Below are positions 15,076 to 64,000 of a stretch of 64,000 nucleotides of DNA, in pieces. The position numbers and the translations under genes were made by a program. The DNA is taken from assembly GCA_030390025.1 (NCBI GenBank), contig JASTWF010000579.1:124001-188000 (forward strand), given 5' to 3'. Each line of letters starts with the position of its first letter. Position 1 is the first letter of the stretch. The notes under the pieces are model-generated. The model made no database searches and was not told the origin of the DNA. It saw only the letters and a list, made by a program, of their open reading frames with translations. This DNA comes from Squalus acanthias. Lineage: Eukaryota.

Positions 15076-15733
15076 TTTGCTGCTGACATTCCCTTATTAA
15101 CGTTGCGTTGATTAGAGGCAGCCTGTAGTGGGGTTTGTGTACAGAACTTCTCTGCTATTGCTGCTCTTCCATTTGATATGAGGCTCTGCTCCGGTGACTC
15201 CATGAATTGGAAGGGGGGCGGGGGGGGGGGGGGGGGGAAGAGGTTACTGCATTCAGCCCACTGTTGATAAATATAATTACAGGAAGGGGCAATTCAGTAG
15301 AAAATAGCCGTTTAAGAGCAATTTTTTGGGCAGAGCAAGAAGGATCTTTATCCTCTGGGTTGCGTGCACTGTGGGTTCACTTTTTTTCTTTCAAGTGCAG
15401 CACAAGAAGCTGTGCAAAAGTCTATTTCCATGGAAGGTGGCTGCCCTTGTCGTGTCCTTTCTCCCATTAGGAAAGTTTCAATAGTACTGATCTGCCAGTA
15501 GATGTAAATATTCGTGTGCTATGATGGGTGTACACAGTCTGAGGTTTGCACCTTTGGCAAGCAGGGGAATTGAAATTGCCATTGGCACCTCCCCAATGTC
15601 TGAATTGGAAAACAACAGAATTCACTGAGAATAAAGTATGTTTGAAAGATTGTGAACCCAGTGATAACTTGATTCTGTGCCGTTGCTGAGTGGATCAAAT
15701 GTAAACTTGAGATTCCTGTTTGTGTTTTTGCAG

Positions 15734-18700
15734 ATTTAAACCACAGTGGTTTGGGATCGCATTATGAAAATTCTCACTGGGGACCTGTCTCTACCAACAG
15801 TGACTCTACTACAAATTGGGATAAAGTTATTGTAGACGGGTCCGACAAAGAAGCCTGGCCTTCAATCACTGGCAGTGACCCAGAGTTGGCTTCAGAATGC
15901 ATGGACGTTGACTCTGCTTCAAGCTCTGGGTCAGAGAAGAACCTCAGTATCATGGCTTCGGGGAGCACAGTTGGTGATGGCGATGGCAACAGAACGGGCA
16001 ATGGAAACGGTTCTTCGAGCCAGTTTGTGGTTGGAAATGTCAGCAATAATGTAGGAAATGGAAGTATTAACGGGCCTTGGGGAGGATCTCGAGGCCCTTT
16101 GTCAAGCACATGTCAGGGTTCTGCAGAAAATATGGATGGCAAACCAGAAAGTGGCCATGGTAAACTGAATGCTTGGGGCAGCATAGGTTCTACATCAGGT
16201 GGATCCCTGAATCCGAATGGTTTGAATCCAAATGCCAACCTAGGTGCCTGGCCTGTGTTGGAAAGTGATGGAAATACTGTGCAAGGACTTGTGCCAGGTG
16301 GCAATTCTGGCACCAATGTTCAACGTAGCACTGTAGGTCAAATGCTGAATAATCAGAGTGTTAACATGGGACTATCAGCTCATGGTTCGTGGGGAGGACT
16401 GCAGGAGAATTCTGATGCAGACGTTAATGGTACAAGGAAGGTTTCATTCAGTGGACAACCTCAAAACCTTAACACTGAAATGAATGGACCAAATAACACT
16501 ACTAACCCTTTGACCTCTAGCTTACCAAACTCTACTAGTTCAATGCAGACAAATGAACTGCCTAAACTTACAGGGCCTGGGGCCTGGGGTGTACCCTTAG
16601 GAATGAGCACAGTAAACCCATCTCAGCTTCAGGCCTCTTCAATTACAAATGGCACTTCCGTTTCTCAGCTTGGCAATGGAGGAATTAGTGAGGGAATGAA
16701 CAGTGGGTCTTATGGTACGACTTGGGGTACATCTGGCACTAACTATTCTGGCGAAAAATGTCCAGGCTCGAGCAGTAATTTGGGGCAAGCTAGTGGTGAC
16801 ACTGTGAATGCAACTCTAGCACAATCTGCTATTAATGGATCTGGAAGTACTGCTTACAAAAGTAATGGGGGAAGCAATAGAGGGGGAGTCGCATGGGAAT
16901 CTGGTGTGGTCAACTCCCACAATATGGCTTGGGGGGCAGGGAACAGTATTGGCTCCGGAGGGGCTAGAAGAGTCTGGGGAAACCCAGCACCAAATGCAAA
17001 CACTGGCACTAATGTCTCAAATGGGGAATGGAACAAACTGCCTAACAATCAGCATTCCACTAATGGTCTAAATGGAAGTGGTAATAGGAAGGGAACAAAT
17101 GGTTGGAAAAGTCTAGACGATGCTCTTTGTGGTCAGAATCAGAATTCTACTACGTCTCAGCCGAGTGAACAGAACAATATGTGGGTCAAAACTCCAACGT
17201 CAACTTCAGGTACTGCGGACAGTGAGGGGAGCACAGAGAGCACTGGGAGTCGCCATGATAGAATGAGTGTAGGAAGCGGTGATGGCAGTGGCAGACGTGG
17301 TGAGAAAAGGAAACCTGACCAGCCAGGAATGGTCCAAAGTATTCTGAGTAGAACTGACTTGGACCCACGTGTACTTTCCAATACAGGTTGGGGGCAGACT
17401 CCAATCAAACAGAACACTGCCTGGGATATTGAACCTTCAGCAAAGAGCGAGAGAAAAACTGACAATGGAACAGAGGCGTGGGGAGGTCGTGTTTCCCAAG
17501 CTTCAAACTCAGGGGGGTGGGGGGATGGGCCTGGCCCGAACAGTAATGATACCTCATCAGTATCTGGGTGGGGGGATCCAAAGCCTGCTACAGTCTCTTG
17601 CAACACAGGGTGGGGAGACACCAAAGGCTCAAGCAGCCAAGGGGGGTGGGAGGATAATTCTGCTGCTACAGGAATGGTAAAGAGCAATCAAACGTGGGGA
17701 GGTAACAAAGAGGAGAAGTCAACTGCGTGGAATGATGCACAAAAGGTCAAACAGGGATGGGTTGATGGACAGAAATCAAACCAAGGTTGGGGAATGTCTG
17801 GAGCTGATGGATGGGGAGAGAATTCAAGGGGTGGCCAGTGGGGGGAATCACAGAAGACTAGCTCAGGCGGTTGGGATAACGACAGCGATAGATCTGTGTC
17901 TGGCTGGAGTGAACCTGGGAGACCGGGCGCAGGTCGAGGCACATGGGCAAGTAGCAACAATTCAAACCCCAATAATACTACAGGTTGGGGAGAGCCCACC
18001 AAGCCTGCTCAGTCCCAGGGCTGGGGGGAACCCGCCAAGCCTGCTCAGTCCCAGGGCTGGGGGGAACCCGCCAAGCCTGCTCAGTCCCAAGGCTGGGGGG
18101 AACCCGCCAAGCCTGCTCAGTCCCAAGGCTGGGGGGAACCCGCCAAGCCTGCTCAGTCCCAAGGCTGGGGGGAACCCGCCAAGCCTGCTCAGTCCCAGGG
18201 CTGGGGGGAACCCGCCAAGCCTGCTCAGTCCCAGGGCTGGGGGGAACCCGCCAAGCCTGCTCAGTCCCAGGGCTGGGGGGAACCTGCCAAGCCTGCTCAG
18301 TCCCAGGGCTGGGGGGAACACACCAAGCCTGCTCAGTCCCAGGGCTGGGGGGAACCCGCCAAGCCTGCTCAGTCCCAGGGCTGGGGGGAACCCGCCAAGC
18401 CGAGTAACTCTGCAGACTGGAACAAGCCACAGGACAGTAACAGTTCTTGGGGAGCCACACCTCCTGCAAATAAACCTTCCGGCCCGGGCTGGCTCAATGG
18501 CCCGATGCCAGCTCCATCAAAAGAGGAGGAACCTACAGGCTGGGAGGAGCCTTCTCCAGAGTCTATTCGCCGCAAAATGGAAATCGATGACGGCACCGCC
18601 GCCTGGGGGGATCCGAGCAAGTACAACTACAAGAGTGTGAACATGTGGAACAAAAATGCGCAGAGCAGCGGCAACGGCGCAGAGCAGTCAGCACAGGTCC

Positions 18701-18805
18701 AGCCCCCGCCGACACCACAGCAGCCCCCATCGCAACACCAACAGCAGCTGCCGCAGCAAATGCCACCGCCAAGTGCCATGCAGAACAAGGAGAACAGTGG
18801 CTCCG
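15734..18805 (+). CDS. TNRC6A: TNRC6A giant exon (3072 nt): GW/WG-rich Argonaute-binding domain ([43 protein letters not shown])
   Basis: ttttgcag|ATTTAAAC and TCCG|gtaagt; the ORF 15751-19041 translation is collinear with vertebrate TNRC6A up to the donor. Confidence 0.97.
17983..18402 (+). repeat. Coding minisatellite, 36-bp unit x ~11.7 ([12 protein letters not shown])
   Basis: ggctggggggaacccgccaagcctgctcagtcccag repeated near-perfectly. Confidence 0.97.
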
Positions 18806-19734
18806 GTAAGTTTATCGCCATGACTTGCAGCTTCAGAAGTGCGAGAAACAAAAGGGTGAAATTTGAGTTTCTGCTGGTTTTTTTGGTATCGTATATTCGG
18901 AAATGTCAACTAGTTAGAAACTGTACTGCATTCAGATGTAGCACCGTGTGCTTGTGTGTCTCTTGTGTACATGTGTTCGTTTATAAACTCCTGTGTACAC
19001 CCTTGGAATCGTGCTTTCAGAGGTGTGCATTTGTAACCTAGCTGGATTCTTTCTGTGCCGTTATTTCACAAAATCCTTGTACATCGAGACCTAAAGACAG
19101 CGATAGGATTTTGAAATTTTTGGCTGTATTTACCTTCCAGTATAATTAATTGTTTTTTGGGAGTGTGTAGGTGGGCTTTTTAGTAGTTTGGATATTAACT
19201 GCATAGGATTACATACTAGATGTAGGAGAAACAGTTTAATTTTAATTGGTGCCTACTGTGTGTGTCTAGTTTGTGAGCCTGTAATATGTTTAAAAAAAAA
19301 GAGATTAGATGAGGCAGGTGGGGGGGGGGGGGGGGGGGGGGGGTTTGTTAATCCTAAATTGTGTGGATATATTCACCCAAGCAGGCTGTCCAATTCATCA
19401 AACTCTGTATTGGCTCTTTTTACTGTTCTTGTCTAGGGCGAGTGACCTCAATGTGTCTCCCCCTTTACTCTTGGAGTTGGGTGTCAATGGCCTGGGGCTC
19501 CACTCTGGTTTTAGCATTTACTTCTCTGAACCCTTTTCTTTAATCTGGTCCATTCCGTGAGCCTGCGGTGCAGTGGGTTCCTCGAGCGTGGTGTTTATAC
19601 TGCTGAGCTCAGCTGATAGCAAGTGACCCGCACGCTAACATGTCGTCATGACTCCTTTTATTTCTCCCCTCTCGGGTACTCTGCCCTCCCAAATCCCTAC
19701 CCCAACCCTTCAGCACTCCTCGACCTTACTCGTC

Positions 19735-31836: not shown

Positions 31837-31971
31837 GTGAGTGTGTTCACAGCCTTCCATGTGCAGGGAGTCAGCTCTACTGTGTCGAGAGACAACATCG
31901 TTTCAGTGAAATATTCAGGATTGTTCGAAACTTTCTGCCCTTCCTCACTTGCTTCATTGTTTCTCTTGCCC

Positions 31972-32449
31972 CTTCCCACCCTTACCCCAATTATCTTCCA
32001 ACCCTTACCCCAATTATCTTCCCACCCTTACCCCAATTATCTTCCCACCCTTACCCCAATTATCTTCCCACCCTTACCCCAATTATCTTCCCACCCTTAC
32101 CCCAATTATCTTCCCACCCTTACCCCAATTATCTTCCCACCCTTACCCCAATTATCTTCCCACCCTTACCCCAATTATCTTCCCACCCTATCCCAATTAT
32201 CTTCCCACCCTATCCCAATTATCATCCCACCCTATCCCAATTATCATCCCACCCTATCCCAATTATCATCCCACCCTATCCCAATTATCATCCCACCCTA
32301 TCCCAATTATCATCCCACCCTATCCCAATTATCATCCCACCCTATCCCAATTATCATCCCACCCTATCCCAATTATCATCCCACCCTATCCCAATTATCA
32401 TCCCACCCTCCCCCAATTATCTTTCCACCCTCCCCCAATTATCTTCCCA
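31972..32449. repeat. Intronic minisatellite: 23-bp cttcccacccttaccccaattat grading into 22-bp catcccaccctatcccaattat
   Basis: Direct inspection, ~21 units. Confidence 0.95.
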
Positions 32450-33766
32450 CTCCAAAGACAGGCAGGTAATGTCTATTGTCGCTGCTTTGAGCTGTGTGCT
32501 TGCAGGTTGGAATCAAGGGCTATGAGGGTCGGGCAGGAAAGTGGCGTTGAGGTGTGAGATCAGCCATGATCTTATTGAATGGCGGAGCGGGCTTGAGAGG
32601 CCGTTTGGCCTCCTCCTGCTCCTAATTCTTTTGTGTGGCCTCCCAACTATTCCCTTTTCATACTGAAGCTCTTGTAATCTCAGCTCTGTTCTGGCACTTT
32701 CTCCCTGACTTGATTGAGATTATAAACTCGTGAGAAATGATGGCACAAACCAGCAGCTTGTCCACAGAATCGTAGAACTTTACAGCACAGAAAGAGGCTA
32801 TTCTACCCATTTCTGTTGTGTCAGCTCACTGAAAGAGCTACCTTCTTAATCCCATTCCCCTGCCCTTTCCACACACCCTGTTAAATTTTTATTTAAATAT
32901 TTATCCACTTCCCTTTTAGCAGCTATTATGGATCCCACCACTGTTTCTCTTCAGAGCACACTGGTGCAATGATGTATCATGCACCCAACATCAAATAGTT
33001 ACCAGATCCACTGTACTTTGCAGATCCTATGGTACAGATCATTTCGGGAAGTCTGTCGGAGCATCTAGCAGCTGTAGATGAGCAGTGCGGGTCCTGATCG
33101 ATTTGTAAAATATTCTACAGGAAGAATCTATCACTGGGCTAGTTGAGCACAACACCTCCACTCACCTGAATATTAAAACTGCCCACATGCTCATGGTTAG
33201 GGAAGTGCTGGTGATGAGAGTAATATACAGTCCTTGTGTAAGAGGGGAGGGGTTCTGACCTGTCTGAGGGATCCCAGCCGGGAATGGGTTTTTATCTCGT
33301 CAGAGTGGCTGCAGGGTAGGTTTATTGGTGTAGTTCCCCGTCCCCTGCCTCACCACCATCACAGTTAAGTTAAAGTTGAAAAGAAATGAATTGAAATCAC
33401 TTCCCTAATGCATTTTGCATTTGTAATTATTGCAGAAACTGAAGCGATGAGGGGTTGGTTGGTTGAACGAACCGTCACACTGCAAATAGAAATGCGGGAA
33501 CGGGTGGGGTTCATTTTTAAAAAGGAGCGGCCTAAGGGAAGAGGAGGCCATGGTTTAGTTTAATTCGGAATGAAACCGAGCAGGGAATTGTCAGCGCTGG
33601 AACTATTGAAGTGAAACCTGTTGAATGTCCATAGTTGAGTGTACTGTTATCTCTTGTCTTTCCCCTACACTGGCTCTGTCTGTCTGCGGGTCTGTGCACT
33701 ATGAAGCTGGGATGTGTTTAAAATGGCGGATCTTTGCTCTGATGCTGCTTGTGCTCTCGTTCACAG

Positions 33767-49683: not shown

Positions 49684-50056
49684 GTGTGTTTTAGGGAACA
49701 CTACCATTCTTGCTGAGTTTGCCAGTGAAGACGAGATTAATCGCTTCTTTGCACAAGGCCAGTCGCTGACGCCCTCTCTGGGCTGGCAATCTCTGGGATC
49801 CAGCCAGAACCGTATCGCATCCATTGACAGTTCCCACCCATTCTCAAACCGCAATGATCTCAATCACTGGAATGGTGCTGGGCTGTCGGGAACTGGTAGT
49901 GGAGACCTCCATGGCACTTCACTCTGGGGCACCCCCAATTATTCCACTAGCCTGTGGGGAACCCCGAGCAGCAATGACACGCGGGGTATCGGCAGCCCCT
50001 CCCCCATCAACGCTTTCCTCCCTGTTGACCACCTCGGAGGTGGAGAGTCCATCTGA
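49684..50056 (+). CDS. TNRC6A: TNRC6A last coding exon: [15 protein letters not shown]...[16 protein letters not shown]
   Basis: ttacag| acceptor, phase 2; TGA at 50054-50056; TNRC6A-type C-terminus. Confidence 0.96.
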
Positions 50057-51810
50057 ACTTTAGTCATGACTCAAACTGTGACCTCGACATGAAAAGCAGC
50101 ACTAATCAGACTTTTCACCTACAGCGTGAGAGAGAGACGGAGAAAAGGGGTCACCTGTGGAAATGTTCCGTTCTGCACCTTTATTTCCACTTTCTTTTAG
50201 CCCAGAACATATCAGTTTTAATACTTGAATCATGCAGGCCAATAATAAAAAAAAAAATGTGAAAAAGTATATATTTATACTTCCAGATAGTGCTATCCAT
50301 TTAAAAGAGAAAAAACTGCTTCAAATGAGCTAGTTTGTGTGCACTCATCATGTTTGTTCCTTAAATTCCAAAACTTCTTTTTTGAGTTTGCTGATGTTGG
50401 GAGTGTGAGCTGTTAATCTGCACTGAGTACTGTCTCCCTGTCCGATTGGCAATAGGGCGGGGGGGGAGGGGGGGGGGGGAAGAGGGTAGTTCAAGTGTAA
50501 ATGTTTACTCAAGGATGTTCTCTTAGCAAGGAAAAAAAAATGGACAAAAAAAGTGTGCTCTTTAATATGCCTTGACATGTACTTACCTTAACGTGGTATT
50601 GTAGAGCCGGGTCAAGTTATCGCACTGACCTCGCCGTTTCAAAAAAAAAAGTATTGCACCAACCTGTTTCTTTTTAAAAAAAAGTTTTAATAAGAAGATA
50701 AAACCTAAAGAATTTAATCTCCACAGTGTGACACTGTGGGCAGCAGCTGTGACTTGCAACCCCACCCTGCAAGCCAGGAGGGTACAGCACTTTCAATAGA
50801 GCTTTCATTTTTTTTGGAGGTGCCCTGTCATGCCCTCTTGTTTACAGACTTTCGAGGGGATAATGTTTACTCTTCCATCATTAATAAAAATGAAAAAAAA
50901 AACTATATAAAAAAAAATTTAAAAAAAAATTTACAAAAATATTTGCGGATGAAGATGTTCTATCTCTGGGAATATTGAACAGTGTTTTTGACCATGTTCT
51001 TTTTTTTTCTATTCCTCTATATCCTGAAACGAGAGAGAGCATGGTTCTCAGGAAATAGTTCCCCCCCCCCCTCCCTCCCTCCTTCCCCCCTTCACAAGTT
51101 AGAAACTCCTGGTAGTTTTGTGTAGGAAACCCCCCCCCCCCCCCCACACCAACTTTTAGCACTGAATTAAACTGCTCTGTAAAAGTTACTTTTTTTTTGC
51201 CAATTTAACTGCTTAAAGCCGGAGTTTCCAGTTATTGCTTTGAAATTGCTGTCTTTTTTATAGTGAGTGAAGGTGGATTTTGCTGACATGTTGTAGTATA
51301 TATACTTTATTTTTTTCCCTCCTTTATATTCCCATTATCGAGTGGCTAAATGTATTTTGCTATTGTGACTGTGTCCAATTGACTGTTGTACTTAAAAAAA
51401 AAAACTGGCTGAGATCTGTAACTATGCATACTGTAACCAGCTCTGGTGGTTTACAGAATCATATTGTTCATCCGTGAGAGGCCGTTTTAATGTAAGAGTT
51501 TGCGTGTAAAAGAGTTCTACAGAAAACGAGTTATTTTACACTTTTTCTTTTGTGTTTTTTTTTGTTTTGCCACAAAAATGTATTCATTCATGCTTGTACA
51601 GAGCGGAGACAAACCAGGACACGATTTTAACACTGCAGACAATGCCACCATTTCATTGCCTTCGTTATAACTGTCTGTCGGAAGATGCAAACAAGTCAGT
51701 GGCTTTTTAACTGTTTACAAATAGAATGTGATTGTAAAATGTATAATTTGGTTGTGTTGAATTATGAAGTTACTTCAAATATTAATAAATCATGACGTTT
51801 TTGGCTGCTC
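50057..51810 (+). promoter_or_regulatory. TNRC6A: TNRC6A 3'UTR (~1.75 kb) with multiple miRNA seed matches
   Basis: Transposon-free AU-rich sequence between the stop codon and AATAAA at 51784; the end is approximate. Confidence 0.7.
51784..51789 (+). terminator. Polyadenylation signal AATAAA for TNRC6A (alternatives at 50244 and 50883)
   Basis: AATAAA with upstream TGTA elements and a downstream U/GU-rich tract. Confidence 0.7.
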
Positions 51811-51837: not shown

Positions 51838-51843
51838 TTTATT
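51838..51843 (-). terminator. Polyadenylation signal AATAAA for the minus-strand gene
   Basis: TTTATT on +; the first such hexamer I found downstream of the stop at 52281. Confidence 0.55.
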
Positions 51844-52280
51844 TGGTGCTGTGGCTTTATCTCCAGACGATGGTTGTCACTCTCTCCTCTCGCAGTGTCT
51901 CAATCCAAACTTCAAAGCTCTGCGTGTCCTATTTTTTTGAAGTTTGAGAAAGGTGCCCCCTCCCCCGCCTTCTCGCTGGAGCCTGTGCCCGTGTCCCGGG
52001 ATTCAGTGCCGGCCCGAGGTCAGAGTGCAGTCAGCAGATGGGGAGTTGTTTTAATCTGCTGCCGTCGCCTGGTTCCACAGGAAGCCCGCACTCTCAGGAG
52101 CGACGTTAAACTCCAAAGCCAAGTGGCCGGCTGATTGTTTTTTGCACAGTGCGGCCAGTACAATAACATGGAAAAAGATACTGTGGTGGGTGGGCGTGCT
52201 GCTCCCAACTCCGAGCAGAGGAAAACATGCCTGACCTTCAGGAAAAGGATGATGATTTTTCTGCATGTTTTCTTTGCTAT

Positions 52281-52355
52281 TTAAGCCGTCCAGTTTCTCT
52301 CCATGCTCACCAGTTCCATCCCTTCACAGTAGGAGCGAGGCCTCCTGGCTTTAAA
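52281..52355 (-). CDS. Uncharacterised EGF-TM membrane protein, last exon: FKARRPRSYCEGMELVSMERNWTA*
   Basis: ttctctcttgcag| acceptor, phase 0, TAA stop; in frame with the preceding exon. Confidence 0.85.
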   Translation of the reverse strand, partial: FKARRPRSYCEGMELVSMERNWTA

Positions 52356-53678
52356 CTGCAAGAGAGAAGTGATGTGTTTTTTACATAAAATCTACAGCAC
52401 AGAAACCGGCCATTCGGTCCAACTGGTCTATGCTGGTGTTTAGAGTGGAAGGAGGCTGGTGGAGTATAATTACCTCTTCACAGCCTGGACTCTTACCCAA
52501 TGTTCCCTTTAATTTTTTTTTTGGGTGCAAGGACCATTCAAATTTCCGCGCATGCGCTGTTTTTCCCATTCAAAAGCTGGTGAGCGGCTGCCTGGGACTT
52601 CCACAACTTAAAGGGAACCTTGCTCATATCCCTCTGCCCCTTCTCCCTCATGTATATATCAAGCCTCTCCTTAAATGCATTAATACTTCAATCACTCCAT
52701 GTAGCAGAAAGTTCCACATTCTCAACACTCTTAGAACAAAGAGAATTGAGGAGGGATTTCTTTACCTGTTGGTGGCTATCCCATAATGTATGCACCTCTT
52801 TCAATCTACTGCAAGCTTTCTCTCATTTTTCTTCAGCTCCAGTTATTTTATTCTCCCCCCCTCGGGCTGGGTCCGGTTCCACAGGTGCTGGCTGCCCTAT
52901 GATGCGCCACCAGACAGCGAGTGTCCCCCTAATTAAATCACCACGGGCAAGGCATCGTGGCTCAGACTCTGTGAATACAACACGTGTGCCCGCACACACG
53001 TTCCAGTGTCATGAATGTTTAGAGGTGATTACTCCATCCTGAAGGATCATTAACATCACAAGAGTATCTATGAGTTAGTCATTTTAATAAACTGGGCAAG
53101 TTCAGCCTAAAATCAGATTGAAATGACATGTTAACATATTAAGCAAATATTTTGCTATGTTATCAGCTCCTTCAGGCTGTCCGTTAGACCTGCCACTGAA
53201 TGCATACTTAGCAGAAAGAATGACGGATTGACTTTCCTGGGAGTGAATGCGTTTTTTTAAAAAAAAGTAAGTTGCAGAGTGAGATTAGGCACTTTGCCCG
53301 AGCCTTTGGTTTGCAATTATCTGTGAGGCACATCTCACTACTCCTTGTGGGCTGAACAAACAATAACTTCACCACAGTGAGGGGACGGGGTCAACTGAGG
53401 GATCTCTGCTTTGGATTTGTGCGTGGTGTTTGCATTCGAGCGTCAGAGTGCTGACACAGGAGGAAGGGCAGTCGCGGCCCTGCTCCGCTCGCTTCCTGAT
53501 CTGAGTGGGAGTCACGGTGTCTTCCTGCGGGGGGGAGGGGAGGAGCAGATCCCAAGGTCATTGTGGCTGGGTGCTCGCTGGTGCCTCCTGCTGGTGGTCT
53601 GGGAGCAGGCTGATATCTGAGCAATAATCCCAAGAAAATACAACCGGAAACCAAAACGGACCGAAGTGAGATACTCAC

Positions 53679-53832
53679 GGGCCTGTCCCTGCTCAGCTGG
53701 TACAGTATCGGGAAGGGTGACCACTGGGGGGGTTCAACGGGCCAGCTGCAAACCGACAGGTCACTGGCTTTCCCCGAGTCCCCAGCGTGCTCGTTGATGC
53801 TGTTGATGCTGATGTCCAGGTTGTTTTGTAAA
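53679..53832 (-). CDS. Uncharacterised EGF-TM protein exon: (S)LQNNLDISINSINEHAGDSGKASDLSVCSWPVEPPQWSPFPILYQLSRDRP
   Basis: ttttccgcttcag| and CCC|gtgagt, phase 2-0. Confidence 0.85.
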
Positions 53833-54264
53833 CTGAAGCGGAAAAAAGTTAACAGTGAGAAAATCTCCTCCTCTGGGCACACTCGGCCCTCCGAGTGCTT
53901 TGTGAGCGCAGAGTCACCGCGCTACCGACCCGTCCCCAAGTTAAGTTAGCAGCTGACGGTGCGTCGCCAGAGGTTCTGATCGACCATCAGCACCTGTCCT
54001 CCGCTCACATCTGCACACTCACTTTCCAGTGGGGTTGAGATCAGGCGTGGAAATCCTGGGAGGTTTATTCTCTCTCCTCTCCACCTTCCCCTTGTTCCTC
54101 CCCCTTCCCCCTCCACCCCCTCGCCCCGTCCCCCACCCTTCCCCTCTCCCCGTTTCTCCATCCTCTCACCGTTCCCCTTCTGCATTCCCATTCCCCTCGA
54201 CATTTTTCTGTCTCCCCTCCCCTCCCTCCCCTTCCACATTATTCCTCCCCCTTTCCCCTCTCTG

Positions 54265-54615
54265 AGGGGACTTCAGTTATGTGGAGAAGCTGGGGTTGTT
54301 CTCCTTGGAGCAGAGGCGGTTGAGAGGAGATTTGATAGAGGTGTTCAAAATCATGAGGGGTCGAGACAGAGTAGATAGAGAGAAACTGTTCCCATTGGTG
54401 GAAGGGTCGTGAACCAGAGGACACAGATTTAAGGTGGTGGAGGCAGATTCAATTGTGGCTTTCAAAAGGGAGTTGGATAAGTACCTGAAGGAAACAATTT
54501 GCAGGACTACGGGGAAAGGGCGGGGGAGTGGGACTGGCTGAAGTGCTCTTGCAGAGAGCTGGCACGGACTCGACGGGCCGAATGGCCTCCTGTGCTGTAA
54601 CCATTCTATGATTCT
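54265..54615 (+). mobile_element. CR1-type 3' fragment
   Basis: LGLFSLEQRRLRGDLIEVFKIM...RGHRFK plus tail ...ccattctatgattct. Confidence 0.85.
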
Positions 54616-55429
54616 GTTCTGATGCCTTGTTCCCCTAACCCTTCTTCCCCTCCTCTCCCACTTCCCACCCCCTGCCTGAGATCAGCAGACTCGACACGGG
54701 TGTTGAGGCTCGGAGGAGTCTGGCCTCGGCTCAGTACCACACGGGGTGGGTCCCTCACCCACTGAGCCATTCTCCCTCCTTGCTGTGAGGCTGGGCAGAG
54801 GGTTGTGTAGATCGCAGTAGACACCGTCAGTTGTATAAATCACAGGCCCCTGTTTCCACTGTCACTTGTGTTGGTTTTAATGAGATTAAGTGGGTGGAGT
54901 TGACGCCACTAGTTATTCAGCAGTATCGGTGGGCACTGCACTCGCACACTGAGCTCTCTGGGGGCTGGGCTCGGAGCAGCACCTCCTTAATTAACAGGAT
55001 TAAGGTTAAAGGAAAAAGCAACAGAGGCCCCTTTGATAATACAGGGTGACGAGGGGGTGGGGCTGGTCTGTTGTCCCTCGCCCCCGTCACCGCCCGAGTC
55101 TCGCTGTGGATGTTATTTCAGAATCGTGGCAAAGTTCCCAACATCCACCCACCAACGGAGAACTTCAACAAACAGCAGCAAAACTTAACCTCTTGCTGTC
55201 CAGAGGAACCGTCGCAACACTCACCATTGGCTGTCCAGAGGAACCGTCGCAACACTCACCATTGGCGTCAAGCAAACGCTTTTTTGGTAGCAAAACTCAG
55301 GCAGTTTAAGAGCCCGATTTCAGAGAAACATTTGGAATCTACCAGGTCGTTTGTGGGGGGAGGGAGAAGTGTTGGAGGGGGGAGAAATTAGAAGTGCTGT
55401 CGGATACTGAACACCAGAGACGGGCTTTC

Positions 55430-56125
55430 AGGCAGCCGTGGCTCAGTGGGTAGCACCGTTGCCTCTGTGTCAGGAGGTTGTGGGTTCAAGTCCACTCCAG
55501 AGACTTGAGCACAAAAATCTAGGCTGACACTCCCAGTGCAGTACTGAGGGAGTGCCGTACTGAGGGAGCGCCGCACTGTCGGAGGGGCAGTACTGAGGGA
55601 GTGCCGCACTGTCGGAGGGGCAGTACTGAGGGAGCGGTGCGCTGTCGGAGGGGCAGTACTGAGGGAGCGTTGCACTGTCGGAGGGGTAGTACTGAGGGAG
55701 CGCCGCACTGTCGGAGGGGCAGTACTGAGGGAGCGTTGCACTGTCGGAGGGGCAGTACTGAGGGAGCGCGCACTGTCGGAGGGGCAGTACTGAGGGAGCG
55801 CTGCACTGTCGGAGGTGCTGTCTTTGGCATGAGACGTTAAACCGAGCTCTCTCAGGTGGATGTAAAAGATCCTATGGCACTATTTCGAATAAGAGCAGGC
55901 GAGTTATCCCCCATATCCTGGCCAATATTTATCCCTCAATCAACATCACTAAAAAAAGCACATTATCTGGTCATTATCACATTGCTGTTTGGGGGATCTT
56001 GCTGTGCGCAAATTGGCTGCTGTATTTCCTACATTACAACAGTGGCTACACTTCAAAAGTATTTCATTGGCTTTAAAGGGCCTTGGGATGTCATGAAAGG
56101 CGCTATAGAAATGCAATGCTATTGT
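55430..56125 (+). mobile_element. Full-length tRNA-headed DeuSINE-type SINE with an internal 33-bp tandem expansion (~55540-55816)
   Basis: A box tggctcagtggg, B box ggttcaagtcc, Deu-like core ggatgtaaaagatcctatggcact...tcctggccaa, L2-like tail. Confidence 0.85.
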
Positions 56126-56241
56126 TCGTTCTTTCTTTGACCGGAGAGTCGGGGCTTCGAGTCTTTGTCTCGTCCCTGACTTTTACGCAATTTCATCATT
56201 TTCTGTTTTTACTTGCATCATTTATATTTTCTTTTCTTTAC

Positions 56242-56469
56242 CTGTGCCTGAAGACTGATCGACCGTGGGGGGCTGTTCTCCGGCTGCTGTAGGTACCGGT
56301 CACTGACCCCTCGTGACAGGAGTAGTAACTGCTGTCCAACATCTGCAGGTGGATCAGTTCGTCCGAGTTACTGAAGCCAGGATTGTCCAGCGAGCTGATG
56401 GAGTAGTTGAGCCAGGACTGGGACTGATATTGAGTGGAGAAATCGTCAAACCGACTGAAGCGTCTGTAA
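56242..56469 (-). CDS. Uncharacterised EGF-TM protein exon: (S)YRRFSRFDDFS...SLDNPGFSNSDELIHLQMLD...FRH
   Basis: ttttccctctccag| and CAG|gtaaag, phase 2-2. Confidence 0.85.
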
Positions 56470-56719
56470 CTGGAGAGGGAAAAGTACAAAGATCACAACA
56501 TCCCTTCCTGGGAGTGGTTGAGTCGGGTCCCTGGGCACTCAGTCCAGGCTTTGTCTGGGACGGCGGGGCACGGGGTAGAGTTTCTACCCGTATTTCTGTC
56601 TACAAGCCAGGTCTCTGTCCCGGCTCTGCCATTGTGGGATGGCACTGGGTGATGGTCGGATAGTTCCACACCCAAAATTATCAGAGTCTGCGTGGGCCTG
56701 TCGCCTCCTGCTGGCTGGT

Positions 56720-57190
56720 TATAAGAACAGGATTAGGCCAGACGGCCCCTCGAGCCTGCTCCGCCATTCAATAAGATCATGGCTGATCATCGACCTCAAC
56801 TCCACTTTCCCGCCCGATCTCCATATCCCTTGATTCCCCTAGAGTCAAAAAAATCTATCGATCTCAGCCTTGAATATACTCAACGACTCAGCATTCACAG
56901 CCCTCTGGGGCAGAGAATTCCAAAGATTCACAACCCTCTGAGTGAAGAAATTCCTCCTCATCTCAGTCTGAAATGGCCGACCCCTTATCCTGAGACTGTG
57001 CCCCCTGGTTCTGGACACTCCAGCCAGGGGAAACAACCTCTCAGCATCTACCCTGTCAATCCCCCTCAGAATCTTATATGTTTCAATGAGATCACCTCTC
57101 ATTCTTCTAAACTCCAGAGAGTACAGGCCCAATCTACACAATCTCCCTCTCATTCCAGGAATCAATCTAGTGAACCTTTGTTGCACCACC
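56720..57190 (-). mobile_element. CR1-type 3' fragment
   Basis: ORF 56845-57189 is near-identical to the 3' part of ORF 42584-43048. Confidence 0.92.
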
Positions 57191-57789
57191 TCTTTAAATA
57201 TACTTGCCTTGAGTCGGAGGAGGGAAGAAAAAAAAAACTCTCACTGAGAGGGGATGGGCTGGTACAGGGAAGTCAGACACTGTCCTTTCACACGCTGGGA
57301 CAGTGGGTCAGACACACACACACACACACTCCCACTGGGCTCTGTATCCCTGAAAGGTTTCCGAGTGTTTAGCCGAGGATCTGTTGGACAGATCTGGTGT
57401 TGCTGTTCATTTCTTTGTTTCTCTCCGACTCCCTGGGGCTTGTCACTGAAACTTAAACAATGAAAAGGAAAGTTCAAGACGGGCTTCAAGGACTCGGAGA
57501 GTTTCAGCTGCTGAGTAGCTCGTCGTCGGGGAAACAGCCACTTCCAGCACCAGAGTGCTTAGACTGTTAAAGGGACACTGTGGTCCAACACAGCACCTGA
57601 CTAATCTTATTTCAGGTTTGAGTGCACGGCGCGGTGACGGTCTAATCGGGCAGCGTGATAAGACTGTCCTTAAACCCGACACTGTATTTGAGAATTAGGA
57701 GCAGGTCGCGTCCATCTGTGGCACAAACTCAACGGAGAATACGGCTGGTTCCAATCAAACACTGCCACCATCCCTTTAATATAATTGTA

Positions 57790-58077
57790 GGTAATTGCCC
57801 TGTCTAGGTGGGTAACTGCACTGTCTGGGGTAATTGCCCTGTCTAGGTGGGTAACTGCACTGTCTGGGGTAACTGCCCTGTCTGGGGTAATTGCCCTGTC
57901 TAGGTGGGTAACTGCCCTGTCTGGGGTAATTGCCCTGTCTAGGTGGGTAACTGCCCTGTCTGGGGTAATTGCCCTGTCTAGGTGGGTAACTGCCCTGTCT
58001 GGGGTAATTGCCCTGTCTAGGTGGGTAATTGCCCTGTCTAGGTGGGTAACTGCCCTGTCTGGGGTAATTGCCCTGTA
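57790..58077. repeat. Minisatellite of alternating 21-bp and 18-bp related units
   Basis: gtaattgccctgtctaggtgg / gtaactgccctgtctggg. Confidence 0.93.
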
Positions 58078-58257
58078 CCCAACCAACATCCATTGGCCAC
58101 TTGGTGGTGACCGGGGTCTTGGGGAACCTTTTCTACAGTGGCCGAGGGGGGAGAGAATCAGCGGGTCAGTCAGCATCCGACAACCCGACATGTTTGTGTT
58201 GTTCCAGTCTGTGAGTCCAGTGATGACGATGGCTCCACACCGAACAGTTAACTCCTG

Positions 58258-58435
58258 AATAACAACAGAAAACGCTGGAAAAACTCAGCAGGCCAGGCAG
58301 CATCCGTGGAGAGAGAAAGAGAGTTGACGTTTCAGGTCGATGACCTTTCATCAGAACTCCTGATCTCGCACAGGTGCCGAGTCTTTCCCTGAGTTTCGGT
58401 TTCAGATGTCCAGCATCTGCACTTTGGTTTTTGCT
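58258..58435 (-). mobile_element. Penelope-like element remnant
   Basis: acagaaaacgctggaaaaactcagcagg...gcagcatc repeat carrying a hammerhead core. Confidence 0.6.
58321..58359 (-). ncRNA. Minimal type I hammerhead ribozyme motif
   Basis: - strand: GAGUU CUGAUGA A AGGUC-AUC-GACCU GAAA CG UC AACUC. Confidence 0.65.
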
Positions 58436-58747
58436 CCATGACAGGAGCAAAGTTCCCCATTTGGAGTTTCCAGGATTCTGTCCTTGTCCAGCACCGAGCG
58501 GGTGGAACCGTTTGGGAATTCCGAGTCTTTATTGTTTAAATATCAAGTTAAAACGGTGCATCGACAGGGAGCTGAGATTTGATGGTGGGGGCCTGACATT
58601 AAACTCAGATGAGTGGAGTAAACAAATCCCAGGAGGACTTACTGACAGGAAAAGAGATTTGGAAAATGTTCCACTGTTAACTGTTCCATAAAACTCCCTC
58701 CCTCCCCTCCCCCCCGACTGAAAACCCATAGGTTCATGGAAATGCTC

Positions 58748-58992
58748 GGAGAGGAGGGGGGGGGAGGGGAGAGGAGGGGGAGGGGAGGGGGGGAGGGGAG
58801 AGGAGGGGGGAGGAGGGGAGAGGAGAGGAGGGAGGGGAGAGGAGGGAGGGGGAGAGGAGGGAGGGGGAGGGGGAGAGGAGGGAGGGGAGGGGGGGGGAGA
58901 GGAGGGAGAGGAGGGAGGGGAGGGGGGGAGAGGAGGGGGGGAGAGGAGGGAGGGGAGGGGGGGGAGAGGAGGGAGGGGAGGGGGGGGAGAGG
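58748..58992. repeat. Polypurine G/A low-complexity tract running into a gap
   Basis: Only G and A for ~245 nt. Confidence 0.95.
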
Positions 58993-59696
58993 NNNNNNNN
59001 NNNNNNNNNNNNNNNNNNNNNNNNNNNNNNNNNNNNNNNNNNNNNNNNNNNNNNNNNNNNNNNNNNNNNNNNNNNNNNNNNNNNNNNNNNNNNNNNNNNN
59101 NNNNNNNNNNNNNNNNNNNNNNNNNNNNNNNNNNNNNNNNNNNNNNNNNNNNNNNNNNNNNNNNNNNNNNNNNNNNNNNNNNNNNNNNNNNNNNNNNNNN
59201 NNNNNNNNNNNNNNNNNNNNNNNNNNNNNNNNNNNNNNNNNNNNNNNNNNNNNNNNNNNNNNNNNNNNNNNNNNNNNNNNNNNNNNNNNNNNNNNNNNNN
59301 NNNNNNNNNNNNNNNNNNNNNNNNNNNNNNNNNNNNNNNNNNNNNNNNNNNNNNNNNNNNNNNNNNNNNNNNNNNNNNNNNNNNNNNNNNNNNNNNNNNN
59401 NNNNNNNNNNNNNNNNNNNNNNNNNNNNNNNNNNNNNNNNNNNNNNNNNNNNNNNNNNNNNNNNNNNNNNNNNNNNNNNNNNNNNNNNNNNNNNNNNNNN
59501 NNNNNNNNNNNNNNNNNNNNNNNNNNNNNNNNNNNNNNNNNNNNNNNNNNNNNNNNNNNNNNNNNNNNNNNNNNNNNNNNNNNNNNNNNNNNNNNNNNNN
59601 NNNNNNNNNNNNNNNNNNNNNNNNNNNNNNNNNNNNNNNNNNNNNNNNNNNNNNNNNNNNNNNNNNNNNNNNNNNNNNNNNNNNNNNNNNNNNNNN
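58993..59696. other. Assembly gap (704 N)
   Basis: N run. Confidence 1.
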
Positions 59697-61150
59697 AGGC
59701 TGCCCACAGCGAACAGACTGAACCTGTTCCTAAGACGGCCGCGGGATTCCAGTGATGCACCCCCGGTTGCCAGGACTGAAAGTTTGAGATTGGCAGCTGA
59801 GGAAACACAGCTCGTGTGGAGCAGACACAGGCCGGGAAAGTCTGCTCATTGGCCCCTGCCCGAGCCTGTGTTCCGTTTTATTAACTCTTTACTGCACTCA
59901 CCGACTGGGCTGCGGCCTTTCCGCTTCATCCCCCTCCCCCCATCCAGTCCAGCCCAGCCCAGGGCACTGAGGCCAGTTCTCATTCCCCGACTGCTGACAG
60001 CACAGGCACACAGGATGGAACTTGGGATCTCCCAGCACTGTGTGTCTCAGTGCCACATGGAGAGCTGTGCTCTCCGGATCATATTCCATCTCCCCTCTCT
60101 CTCTCTCTCTCTCTCTCATTCCCTCCTTCCCTCCCCACAGCTCCCCCAGTCACTCTTCTGCCTTGTGCTCCTGAGAGAGAAAGAGGTCGATGGAGAGGGA
60201 GGGACCTCGAGCTGGGGGAAGAGAGACAGACAGACATGGAATGAGAAACACAGGGAGGTAGACAGAGAGAGGGATAGGAACAGAGGGAAGGCAGGGAGTC
60301 TCGCCCGTGTCCTTTATGCTGCCCCAGTTTTGTGGATGTGCGGTAATTTGACTGAAAGAATAAATCTGTCCATTAAATCTAGTTCTTTAAATCTGTCTGA
60401 ACAGCACAAAGCGACAAGGACACAACCGAAGAGGCAGAGAGACCCGGCCAGCCGTGCTTATTAATCAGGCAATTTTCACAACTTGCTGGCACTAATTAAC
60501 CTTCCGAGGTGTGGCAGATGAACCAGTGCTCACGCCTCATAAATCAGCCCGTCAGTGCCCCAGCCAGAAGCAGGTTCGACCCCGGTGATTAATGAGCCCT
60601 CACCGCATGTTTCCTGCGATCGTCGCCGCCCTTCCCATTCGTTCATTTGCATGTGTAGCCACTTCTCCATTTTAACACACTTGGTGGTGTAATTTCCATG
60701 TTAATTAAATCCGTCACCTTCGATCTCCGAGGTGTGATATTTCATTTAGCTGGCAGCGTTTCAAATACGGGGAGGCAGCAAGATCTTCAGGGAGTTATAC
60801 TGCACGCTGCGAGTACTGCGCCTAATAGCAGGAGCGGCCAAGCTTTTCACCCTCGGGGGGTTGGGGGGGGCACTTGGGTGGTACCACAGGGCCTTGGGCA
60901 GGGTCCAGGGATAGAATTTAAATCCCCGCTCCCATGAATTTGCAGATATCGGCAGTCACAATTACAATAGTATTTACAGCACAGAAACAGGCCATTCGGC
61001 CCAACAGGTCCATGCCAGTTGTTAGGGAAATGTGGGGGTTTGAACCCAGAGGTCGGTCACAGATCTCTCTGCACCGCTCACCCCATTCCCACCTTCTCTC
61101 TCTCAGGTTGGGGCAAGATGTGGGACCAGCAGTGATGGCCGTTCTCTTAC

Positions 61151-61342
61151 CTGCTTTTCGTCTGGTCGATTTTGGCCTCAATCAACAAGATCTTGAACCT
61201 TCTCAGGACAGCGATCGCGACGGCCGCCATGACAACGACGAGACTGAGCACGACACCAAACGCAATTCCAATCAGGCTCTGCCGGGTCATTCTGTGGTCA
61301 CACCGGGAGCCCATGAACCAGTAATCACTGCCCACAGGGCAC
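61151..61342 (-). CDS. Uncharacterised EGF-TM protein exon: CPVGSDYWFMGSRC (EGF C-terminal loop), TM helix LIGIAFGVVLSLVVVMAAVAIAVL, RRFK stop-transfer
   Basis: ttttattgcag| and CAG|gtaaga, phase 2-2; hydrophobic 24-mer followed by basic residues; upstream exons not found in the window. Confidence 0.88.
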
Positions 61343-61381
61343 CTGCAATAAAACGTGATCCTGATTGACCGGCGTCATGGA

Positions 61382-63020
61382 TACATAGAATCACAGAATC
61401 TTACAGCACAGAAGGAGGCCATTCGGCCCATCGTATCTGTGTCGGCTCTTTGAAAGAGCTCTCCAATTAATCCCACACGCCGGCTTTTTCCCCATAACCC
61501 AGCAAATTAGTTCTCTTCAAATACATGTCCAATTGCCTATTGAAAGTTCCTCTGGAATCTGTTTCAAGCACCGTTTCAGACAGTACATTCCAGATCATCA
61601 CAACCCTGTGTGTGAAAAAAATTCTCCGAATTTGCCCTCCAGTTCTTTTGTGATTATTTTAAATCTATGGCCTCTTTTTTTTTTATTTTATTCGTTCATG
61701 GGATGTGGGCGTCGCTGGCGAGGCCAGCATTTATTGCCCATCCCTAGTTGCCCTGGAGAAGGTGGTGGTGAGCCGCCTTCTTGAACCGCTGCAGTCCGTG
61801 TGGTGATGGTACTCCACAGTGCTGTTAGGGAGGGAGTTCCAGGATTTTGACCCAGCGACGATGAAGGATCGACGATATACTTCTAAGTCAGGATGGTGTG
61901 TGACTTGGAGGGGAACTTGCAGGTGGTGGTGTTCCCATGCGCCTGCTGCCCTTGTCCTTCTAGGTGGAAGAGGTCGCGGGTTTGGGAGGTGCTGCCGGAA
62001 TTCAGCTCTTTTGTCCATGTTTGGACCGAGGCTGTAATGAGGTCGGGAGCCGAGTGGTCCTGACGGAACCCAAACTGGGCATCAGTGAGCAGGTTATTGG
62101 TGAGTCAGTGCCGCTTGATAGCACTGTCGATGACACCTTCCATCACTTTGCTGATGATTGAGAGTAGACTGATGGGGCGGTAATTGCCAGAGGAAACTGT
62201 TTCTCTCTGCTCTATCAAAACCCCAATGATTTTGAAAACCTCTCTCAAGTCTCGTCTTCACCTTTTCTACTCTAAGGAGAACAATCCCAGTTTCTCCAAT
62301 CTCTCTACGTAACTGAAGTCCCTCATTCCTGGTAAATCTCCTCTGTACCTTCTCCAAGGCCTTGATAGCCTTTCTAAAGTGTGGTGCCCAGAATTGTACA
62401 CAATACTCCAGCGGAGGCCTAACCAGTGATTTGTAAAGGTTTAGCATGATGTTCTTGTTTTTCTCTTCAATCACCCCATTTACAAAGTCAAATATCCCCT
62501 ACGCTTTCTTAGCCGCCTTCTCAACTTGCCCTGAGACCATCAAGGATTTATGAATGTGCACCCCCAGGTCCCTCTGATCTTGCAATCCCCTCAAATTCGT
62601 ACCAATAAGATTTTACTGCCTCTCCGTGTTGTTTCTCCCATAGTGCATCATTTCACAATTATCTGCATTAAATTGTATCTGCCATGTGTCTGCCCATTTC
62701 ACCAATCTGTCTACGTCCTCCTGAAATCTGATACTATCCTGCTCACTATTTACTACATTGCCAAGTTTTGCATCATCCACAAATTTAAATTGTACTCCCC
62801 TTACCTAAATCCAGGTCATTTATATACAACAAGAAAAGCAATGGTCCTAATACCGACCCCTGGGGGACCCCCACTGCATACTTCTCTCCAGCCAGAAAAT
62901 CATCCGTTCACCACTACTCTCTGTCTCCTATCCCTTAGCCAATTACATACCCAAGTTACCACCGTCCCTTTAATCCCACTTGCTTCTATTTTCCAAATAA
63001 GTCTGTTATGTGGTACTGTA
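61382..63020 (-). mobile_element. CR1 LINE (61382-61675 and 62185-63020) with a different LINE 3' end nested at ~61676-62185
   Basis: [17 protein letters not shown] and [15 protein letters not shown] on -; the insert has a poly-T end and KSWNSLPNSTV. Confidence 0.8.
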
Positions 63021-63494
63021 CAGTGGGAGTGAATGGGAAGGGGTTTGGTCCACTGGGGCTCCTTCCTGAGGATTGGCCCAATGTTGTTGCCATCTGATAC
63101 CTCATTCAAGTGGCCGTTCTTCACATTTTGAGCCGAGATAGTGAGTACCAACAGGCTATTCCACCATGGAAAGCGTCACAGCAGAGCCTCACCCCGCCCT
63201 TACCCAGTGTCCACACATGTACTGGTGAATTGTGTGCTGTGAACGGCATCAGGAGAAGAAACCCTTACTGATTTTTCCTCTCTCCACCTCAGGGACCCAG
63301 CATCCTGACCACCATCCCAGGCTGGATTAGCTCAGAGAATGGAGATGAATCTCAGACTTCCCCGCTCTGTGTGTTTGGCTCATTGTCACACCAGGCAGTG
63401 CATGCGCCCACTGAGCCACCAGTGGGGCTAGATGGCCCATTTCTGTTTAGCTGGTAGTTAGTTGGTGCTATTTAAATACAAGTTGTTGTTGTTG

Positions 63495-64000
63495 CTGCTG
63501 AAACCCTTATCCATGCCTTTGTTACCTCTAGACTTGACTATTCCAATGCACTCCTGGCCAGCCTCCCACATTCTACCCTACGTAAACTTGAGGTCATCCA
63601 AAACTCGGCTGCCCGTGTCCTAACTCGCACCAAGTCCCGTTCGCCCATCTCCCCTGTGCTCGCTAACCTACATTGGCTCCTGGTTAAGCAGCGCCTCGAT
63701 TTCAAAATTCTCATCCTTGTTTTCAAATCCCTCCATGGCCTCGCCCATCCCTATCTCTATAATCTCCTCCAGCCCCCGCCCCCCCCCCGCAAAGATATCT
63801 GCACTCCTCTAATTCTGCTCTCTTGAGCATCCCTGATTATAATCACTCAACCTTTGGTGGCCGAGCCTTCTGCTGCCTCGGCCCTAAGCTCTGGAATTCC
63901 CTGCCTAAACCTCTCCGCCTCTCTACCTCTCCTTCCTCCTTTAAGACGCTCCTTAAAACCTACCTCTTTGACCAAGCTCTTGGTCACCTGCCCTAATTTA
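63495..64000 (+). mobile_element. L2 LINE 3' region, runs off the window
   Basis: HAFVTSRLDYSNALLA..IQNSAARVLT..LHWL. Confidence 0.88.

Follow-up and report, generated by a model that had tools for sequence, protein, structure and literature searches.

In a 64,000-nucleotide stretch of the genome of the shark Squalus acanthias (assembly GCA_030390025.1, contig JASTWF010000579.1, positions 124,001 to 188,000 of the forward strand; hereafter the window), four minus-strand exons were found that, judged from sequence comparison, almost certainly form the 3' end of a chondrichthyan gene orthologous to vap (vascular associated protein, si:ch211-14k19.8). With the exon at 56469-56242 as a protein query, 30 proteins were retrieved from 42 candidates, with sharks and rays on top at 73–95% identity; several of these top chondrichthyan matches are named “vap” or “si:ch211-14k19.8”, others carry generic mucin labels, and UniRef labels the Astyanax and Triplophysa orthologues “Vascular associated protein”. 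The gene, which a sequence-only reading of the window had described as unnamed, thus already has names in other species, and the likeness to teleost proteins that the same reading saw in the tail comes from true orthologues. Over the 215 amino acids encoded by the four exons, identity is 91% to Carcharodon, 88% to Mustelus vap, 68% to the coelacanth, 59% to the duck, 51% to Astyanax Vap, 49% each to stickleback vap and the echidna, and 46% to the platypus.

A maximum-likelihood tree was built from 43 chosen rows without an outgroup from other mucin families; in it, the window falls inside the chondrichthyans (support 99/98) and adjoins Pristiophorus, and teleosts, sturgeons, amphibians, monotremes and sauropsids cluster as the species do. 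The family is present in fishes, amphibians, reptiles, birds, platypus and echidna, which together with the tree bears out the earlier suggestion of an origin in the ancestor of jawed vertebrates; no lamprey, hagfish or invertebrate protein occurs among the 80 matches of an exhaustive search with a shark exon (75-amino-acid query; weak evidence). Compared with its chondrichthyan orthologues, the window protein shows 77–92% identity with all four C-terminal segments in common, so that only the species differs. The labels of these orthologues are inconsistent: Mustelus and Rhinoraja have “vap”, Carcharodon “mucin-17”, Pristiophorus “IMPG2” and Heptranchias “mucin-2”. The comparison with zebrafish vap rests on other teleosts, since the Danio rerio protein itself is not among the named matches; teleost Vascular associated proteins are 51–53% identical to the window protein over the 215 amino acids and share its tail motifs and C-terminus, whereas the G-S-V motif of the SEA domain is kept in sharks and missing in teleosts.

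Exon structure and transcripts

All four exons are read from the minus strand. The first (61342-61151, 192 nucleotides) encodes the end of the juxtamembrane EGF domain, the transmembrane helix (61275-61204), the basic stop-transfer sequence RRFK and the start of the cytoplasmic tail. The second (56469-56242, 228 nucleotides) carries YRRF, an NPxF-type motif (DNPGFS, 56387-56370) and a variable linker, and the third (53832-53679, 154 nucleotides) carries DSGKAS (53780-53763), SWPxEP (53747-53730) and WxPFP (53723-53709). The last coding exon (52355-52281, 75 nucleotides) ends the protein with EGMEL (52325-52311), a C-terminal W-T-A and the stop codon TAA. A pyrimidine-rich tract followed by AG precedes every exon and a GT donor follows the first three; the introns measure 4681, 2409 and 1323 nucleotides, and the phases are 2 (upstream), 2, 2 and 0. 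The spliced frame runs for 215 residues to its sole stop, which is terminal, where about 216 amino acids had been expected from the letters alone, and the tail measures 169 rather than about 170 amino acids. The peptide has a single hydrophobic segment (maximum of 2.95 in a 19-residue hydropathy window), and RRFK starts at residue 47. Relatives matched all four exons in tblastn searches (E 1e-39 to 1e-8 with shark and coelacanth queries), and because of these matches and the 91% identity to Carcharodon the exons are not a product of chance. Splice sites, frame and tblastn thus agree with the sequence-only reading that this is a real, spliced, single-pass gene.

Splicing was followed in four runs guessed to be RNA, no listed run with matches being recorded as RNA. 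They have no tissue record and were aligned to positions 52000-56500, a stretch that takes in the second and third introns, with exon joins deduced from the coordinates of alignment pieces and from depth; of 274 tabulated joints, the 15 listed are repeat-derived. One RNA-type contig (record 17 of run X3) aligns to 52355-52139 without differences, and its initial 90 letters agree with the depth over the exon at 53832-53679. Another, from a relative (record 25 of run X7), aligns with its positions 98-331 to the exon at 56469-56242 and with 486-835 to the last exon and the 3' untranslated region (UTR); the 154 intervening letters equal the length of the exon at 53832-53679, where the depth is equal (13.9). 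Two of the three vap introns are therefore spliced out in transcripts, in which the second, third and fourth exons are joined across the expected junctions 56242/53832 and 53679/52355. The likely 3' UTR occupies 51838-52280 on the minus strand, as indicated by an AATAAA signal near its end (51843-51838) and by the RNA-type contigs: record 25 of run X7 spans 52355-52002 plus 205 further letters, and record 9 of run X2 and record 17 of run X3 cover it in part. Upstream, tblastn with seven full-length relatives found no further vap exon in the window, where 61343-64000 on the minus strand is an upstream vap intron with repeats, and hence the exons for the CUB-like domain, the mucin stalk, the SEA domain and most of the EGF part should lie beyond position 64000.

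Domain architecture, tail motifs and proposed function

Most full-length relatives are about 1000–2400 amino acids long and have the order signal peptide, CUB-like domain, Ser/Thr-rich stalk, SEA domain, two EGF domains, transmembrane helix and tail, and some have an extra EGF domain between the CUB-like domain and the stalk. Ser and Thr together make up 17–31% of the long relatives (961–2417 amino acids). The Pfam SEA profile scored above its curated cut-off in five of ten relatives, the EGF and CUB matches being weak, and Pfam gave nothing significant on three single-exon peptides. In the AlphaFold model of the 509-amino-acid Pristiophorus protein, the predicted local distance difference test (pLDDT) exceeds 90 for the SEA domain, the EGF pair and a helix at residues 330-382 are confident, and the remaining tail scores about 50 or less; the model thus predicts a membrane helix extending some 25 residues into the cytosol and an otherwise disordered tail. 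Aligned with VIA-align, the SEA region matches SEA5 of MUC16 with a Z score of 12.4 and a root-mean-square deviation of 2.6 over 107 residues. Foldseek gave no match at E 0.001 or better (SEA domains ranked 1, 3 and 5), and sequence searches of the PDB, for which the Pristiophorus protein and the family profile served as queries, yielded none at that threshold. The CUB-like region was badly aligned and therefore modelled poorly (pLDDT 33–59), so its CUB fold is putative.

With a ten-seed profile and proteins of at least 900 amino acids, the CUB-like domain was detected in 43 of 59 teleosts, all five sturgeons, five of ten turtles and one of six long shark models, and in none of 45 birds, 13 frogs, 11 lizards and two monotremes; these absences may in part be due to incomplete gene models without first exons. 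The domain was also seen in lungfish and coelacanth. The cleavage motif GS[VILT] of the SEA domain occurs in 187 of 284 complete family sequences, including sharks, birds and monotremes, cleavage itself being predicted. Vap has in common with the SEA-EGF membrane mucins and proteoglycans (IMPG2, MUC3/12/17, MUC13 and HEG1) a mucin stalk, a SEA domain, juxtamembrane EGF domains and one transmembrane helix. Its tail, in contrast, retrieves none of these proteins, and Vap of fishes and turtles has an N-terminal CUB-like domain. The resemblance of the juxtamembrane part to IMPG2 and membrane mucins, already seen from the window alone, recurs among the Atlas neighbours.

Tail motifs were counted in the 284 sequences with a complete C-terminus among 309 family matches at E 1e-20 (25 were dropped). 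DSGxxS is present in every one of them and in every clade sampled, as compared with 1.1% of shuffled tails by chance; 281 have WPx[ED]P, 280 end in W[TS]x and 274 carry NPx[FY]. Many tail columns are 95–100% conserved from sharks to birds, a tyrosine after the membrane helix is invariant, and the conserved DSGxxS falls in the predicted disordered cytosolic region (pLDDT around or below 50). NPxF is a putative PTB/FERM-type site and the Vap C-terminus a putative PDZ-type ligand. PMC3036580 describes DSGxxS as a beta-TrCP motif by which IFNAR1 and the prolactin receptor are driven into endocytosis. Both of these have it in the cytoplasmic tail, as does Vap; they are, however, cytokine receptors without homology to Vap, in which the degron is putative. 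In Polypterus senegalus, the tail is shortened and divergent, without the block from DSGKAS to PFP, and the protein has a very long branch, which may mean that the tail has truly decayed, that this is a paralogue or that the gene model is wrong.

On balance, we lean towards Vap being a single-pass SEA-EGF vascular membrane mucin whose amount at the cell surface is set by a phosphorylation-triggered degradation motif in the tail. On endothelial cells and early blood cells, the O-glycosylated stalk would serve as a spacer in the glycocalyx or modulate adhesion, and the SEA domain would self-cleave between G and S of G-S-V in the lineages that keep the motif, which would permit shedding. In the cytosol, the NPxF-type motif, the W/P-rich block and the W-T-x end may bind adaptors of the PTB/FERM and PDZ types, and phosphorylation of DSGxxS would recruit SCF(beta-TrCP), followed by endocytosis and degradation. 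A zebrafish study from 2012 reportedly detected vap in the intermediate cell mass and in endothelium, and knock-down with morpholinos is said to have caused red-cell and intersegmental-vessel defects. The title of Kawahara, Endo and Dawid 2012 (PMID 22510405) ties zebrafish Vap to erythropoiesis and angiogenesis, and si:ch211-14k19.8 belongs to a zebrafish blood-vasculature gene set in PMC11968557, whose supplement rows give it as mostly down after late exposure to SU4312 or sorafenib.

Several points weigh against this picture of a vascular mucin. The gene is up after early SU4312 exposure in the same supplement rows (PMC11968557) and iridophore-enriched in a table of PMC3706446, so that vap is not simply a vessel marker. 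The growth hormone receptor has a conserved DSGxxS that, according to PMC3036580, plays no part in hormone-induced endocytosis. The SEA cleavage motif is found in none of 64 teleosts (windowed count) and self-cleavage therefore cannot be needed in zebrafish, and the set in which the motifs were counted is bird-heavy (158 of 284). The functional data on zebrafish Vap reportedly come from morpholino knock-down; binding, cleavage and degradation of Vap are predictions, and the upstream domains of the shark protein are taken over from its relatives.

The main rival is that Vap is a ligand-binding signalling receptor in which a partner binds to the CUB-like and EGF domains and the signal is passed on by the conserved tail, in the way that HEG1 acts in the endothelium. 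We consider this rather unlikely, and it can coexist with the membrane-mucin reading. The conservation of the tail far exceeds what anchoring would need, the tyrosine that follows the membrane helix is invariant, and HEG1 clusters are among the Atlas look-alikes (0.85–0.87, leads only), but the CUB-like domain was missed in all of the birds, frogs, lizards and monotremes counted above (whose models may miss first exons), the AlphaFold model has no catalytic or folded domain in the tail, and we know of no ligand of Vap. A receptor role, as in the term “receptor-like” used for the window gene before, is unproven, and taken as a whole the domains make up a membrane mucin. Very unlikely, in our view, is an EGF-family growth-factor precursor whose juxtamembrane EGF domain would be shed or presented to ErbB receptors. 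That domain does adjoin the membrane and keeps G-x-R-C (with R in 92%), and EGF is the top sequence match in the PDB; the match is nevertheless not significant (E 0.084), with an alignment that takes a 4-residue gap, and the Atlas neighbours are mucins and IMPG2 rather than ErbB ligands. Ligands of EGFR/ErbB have eight residues between the fifth and sixth EGF cysteine, as in EGF itself, whereas this last loop has 12 in Vap.

We give next to no credence to the database labels according to which the gene would be IMPG2, MUC17 or another known mucin. Matches from Pristiophorus, rays and most birds are labelled IMPG2, MUC17, CSPG5 or MEP1B, and IMPG2 and mucin-12 clusters reach 0.93–0.95 in the Atlas, but the proteins so labelled carry the vap tail, and three bird examples nest among bird orthologues in the tree. 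Moreover, the tail exon retrieves no human or mouse IMPG2 or mucin, and none is among the 240 listed matches of the C-terminal region. The IMPG2 and mucin labels are likely best-hit transfers through the SEA and EGF domains, and vap and IMPG2 likely share an ancient common origin. An ErbB-ligand role was rejected on the cysteine spacing and identity with IMPG2 on the retrieval by the tail, each a defining property.

Vap in monotremes and therians

The sequence-only reading had considered the gene possibly lost in mammals, which goes too far, since vap is still present in platypus (XP_028912838.1) and echidna (XP_038618708.1); for therians, loss is likely. With the C-terminal 285 amino acids of the platypus protein as query, teleosts were recovered at E 1e-58 or better, and no marsupial or placental protein is among the matches listed (120 of 125 long and 120 of 188 short). 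This search covered proteins; 8000 candidates were scored in its short part, and 73 matches lie beyond those listed. Most of the 120 listed short matches are bird Vap orthologues mislabelled IMPG2, MUC17, CSPG5 or MEP1B, and reptile and monotreme Vap proteins go by labels such as NACA-like, collagen-like or SAP18. In the exhaustive shark-exon search, 77 of 80 matches belong to the family (76 nearest to non-mammals and one the platypus protein itself) and three are repeats. Only platypus and echidna were nearest to monotremes among the 334 family proteins gathered. A protein labelled “Mustela putorius furo” (CAI5680978.1) was rejected, as it is a tilapia protein identical to that of Oreochromis aureus over the tree columns.

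Because the listed matches contain no marsupial or placental and only the two monotremes stand out among the family proteins, we think it likely, from these protein comparisons, that vap disappeared in the common ancestor of marsupials and placentals. The monotreme stem branch measures 0.60 as against 0.08 for sauropsids, and both monotremes have lost NPx[FY] and EGxEL and kept DSGxxS and the W-T-x end, which suggests that constraint on the gene was relaxed before the therian loss. The same long stem, together with the E value of only 7.7e-6 at which the platypus protein is found with the shark exon, could instead speak for a therian vap that has diverged beyond detection or is unannotated, as could the 68 short and five long matches beyond those listed in a search of proteins. 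We regard such a hidden gene as improbable: the platypus query reaches as far as teleosts without a therian among its 240 listed matches, the sole “Mustela” label belongs to tilapia, and no family protein besides the two known monotremes is monotreme-nearest.

Genomic neighbourhood and wider meaning

Vap faces a plus-strand neighbour at 2030-51789, a TNRC6/GW182 gene by its Pfam domains (TNRC6-PABC_bdg at E 2.5e-31, Ago_hook at E 3.5e-10), with its stop codon near 50054 and its last AATAAA at 51784-51789. Because its coding part ends before the end of minus-strand vap, the two genes stand tail to tail, as the sequence-only reading had it; the paralogue that it named, TNRC6A, is presumably right, judging by the C-terminus of the neighbour. 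The lone Atlas label is TNRC6B at 0.84, a lead only, and comparisons with the PDB and the Atlas gave no assignment to A, B or C. The last AATAAA of TNRC6 and the likely one of vap (minus strand, 51843-51838) are about 50 bases apart, so that the 3' ends of the two transcripts would abut or overlap slightly. Within the large TNRC6 coding exon at 15673-19038, a unit of about 36 bp is repeated in tandem and in frame in about 12 copies (17965-18516), possibly a lineage-specific expansion of GW repeats. An assembly gap of 704 N (58993-59696, no strand) lies within the first vap intron, intronic minisatellites were seen at 57780-58130, 55520-55840 and 31900-32460, and repeat-type sequence at 54265-54717 and 55322-56227, with very deep, repeat-derived read coverage, was set aside.

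The locus itself is ordinary, as vap was known before and other sharks already have it annotated. The comparison narrows down the history of vap, which monotremes have kept and therians have likely lost. It also identifies as Vap more than a hundred bird proteins that carry the labels IMPG2, MUC17, CSPG5 or MEP1B, and it points to the DSGxxS degron candidate as something that can be tested in a gene whose mechanism the literature barely covers. Neither the tail motifs nor the therian loss was found in the literature searched, which misses most subscription journals, and the loss may already be published. A bolder scenario, to which we give slightly less than an even chance, is that a vascular mucin found throughout jawed vertebrates, with an invariant beta-TrCP degron, began to decay on the mammalian stem and was deleted in the therian ancestor, its job passing to another mucin such as HEG1 or MUC13. 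If true, therians would have lost a gene that fish need to pattern vessels and mature red cells, and this loss would have gone unreported so far, hidden by the IMPG2, MUC17, CSPG5 and MEP1B mislabels. Should the loss hold, a vascular gene of fish would be dispensable in humans, which matters when the results of zebrafish vascular screens are transferred to mammals.

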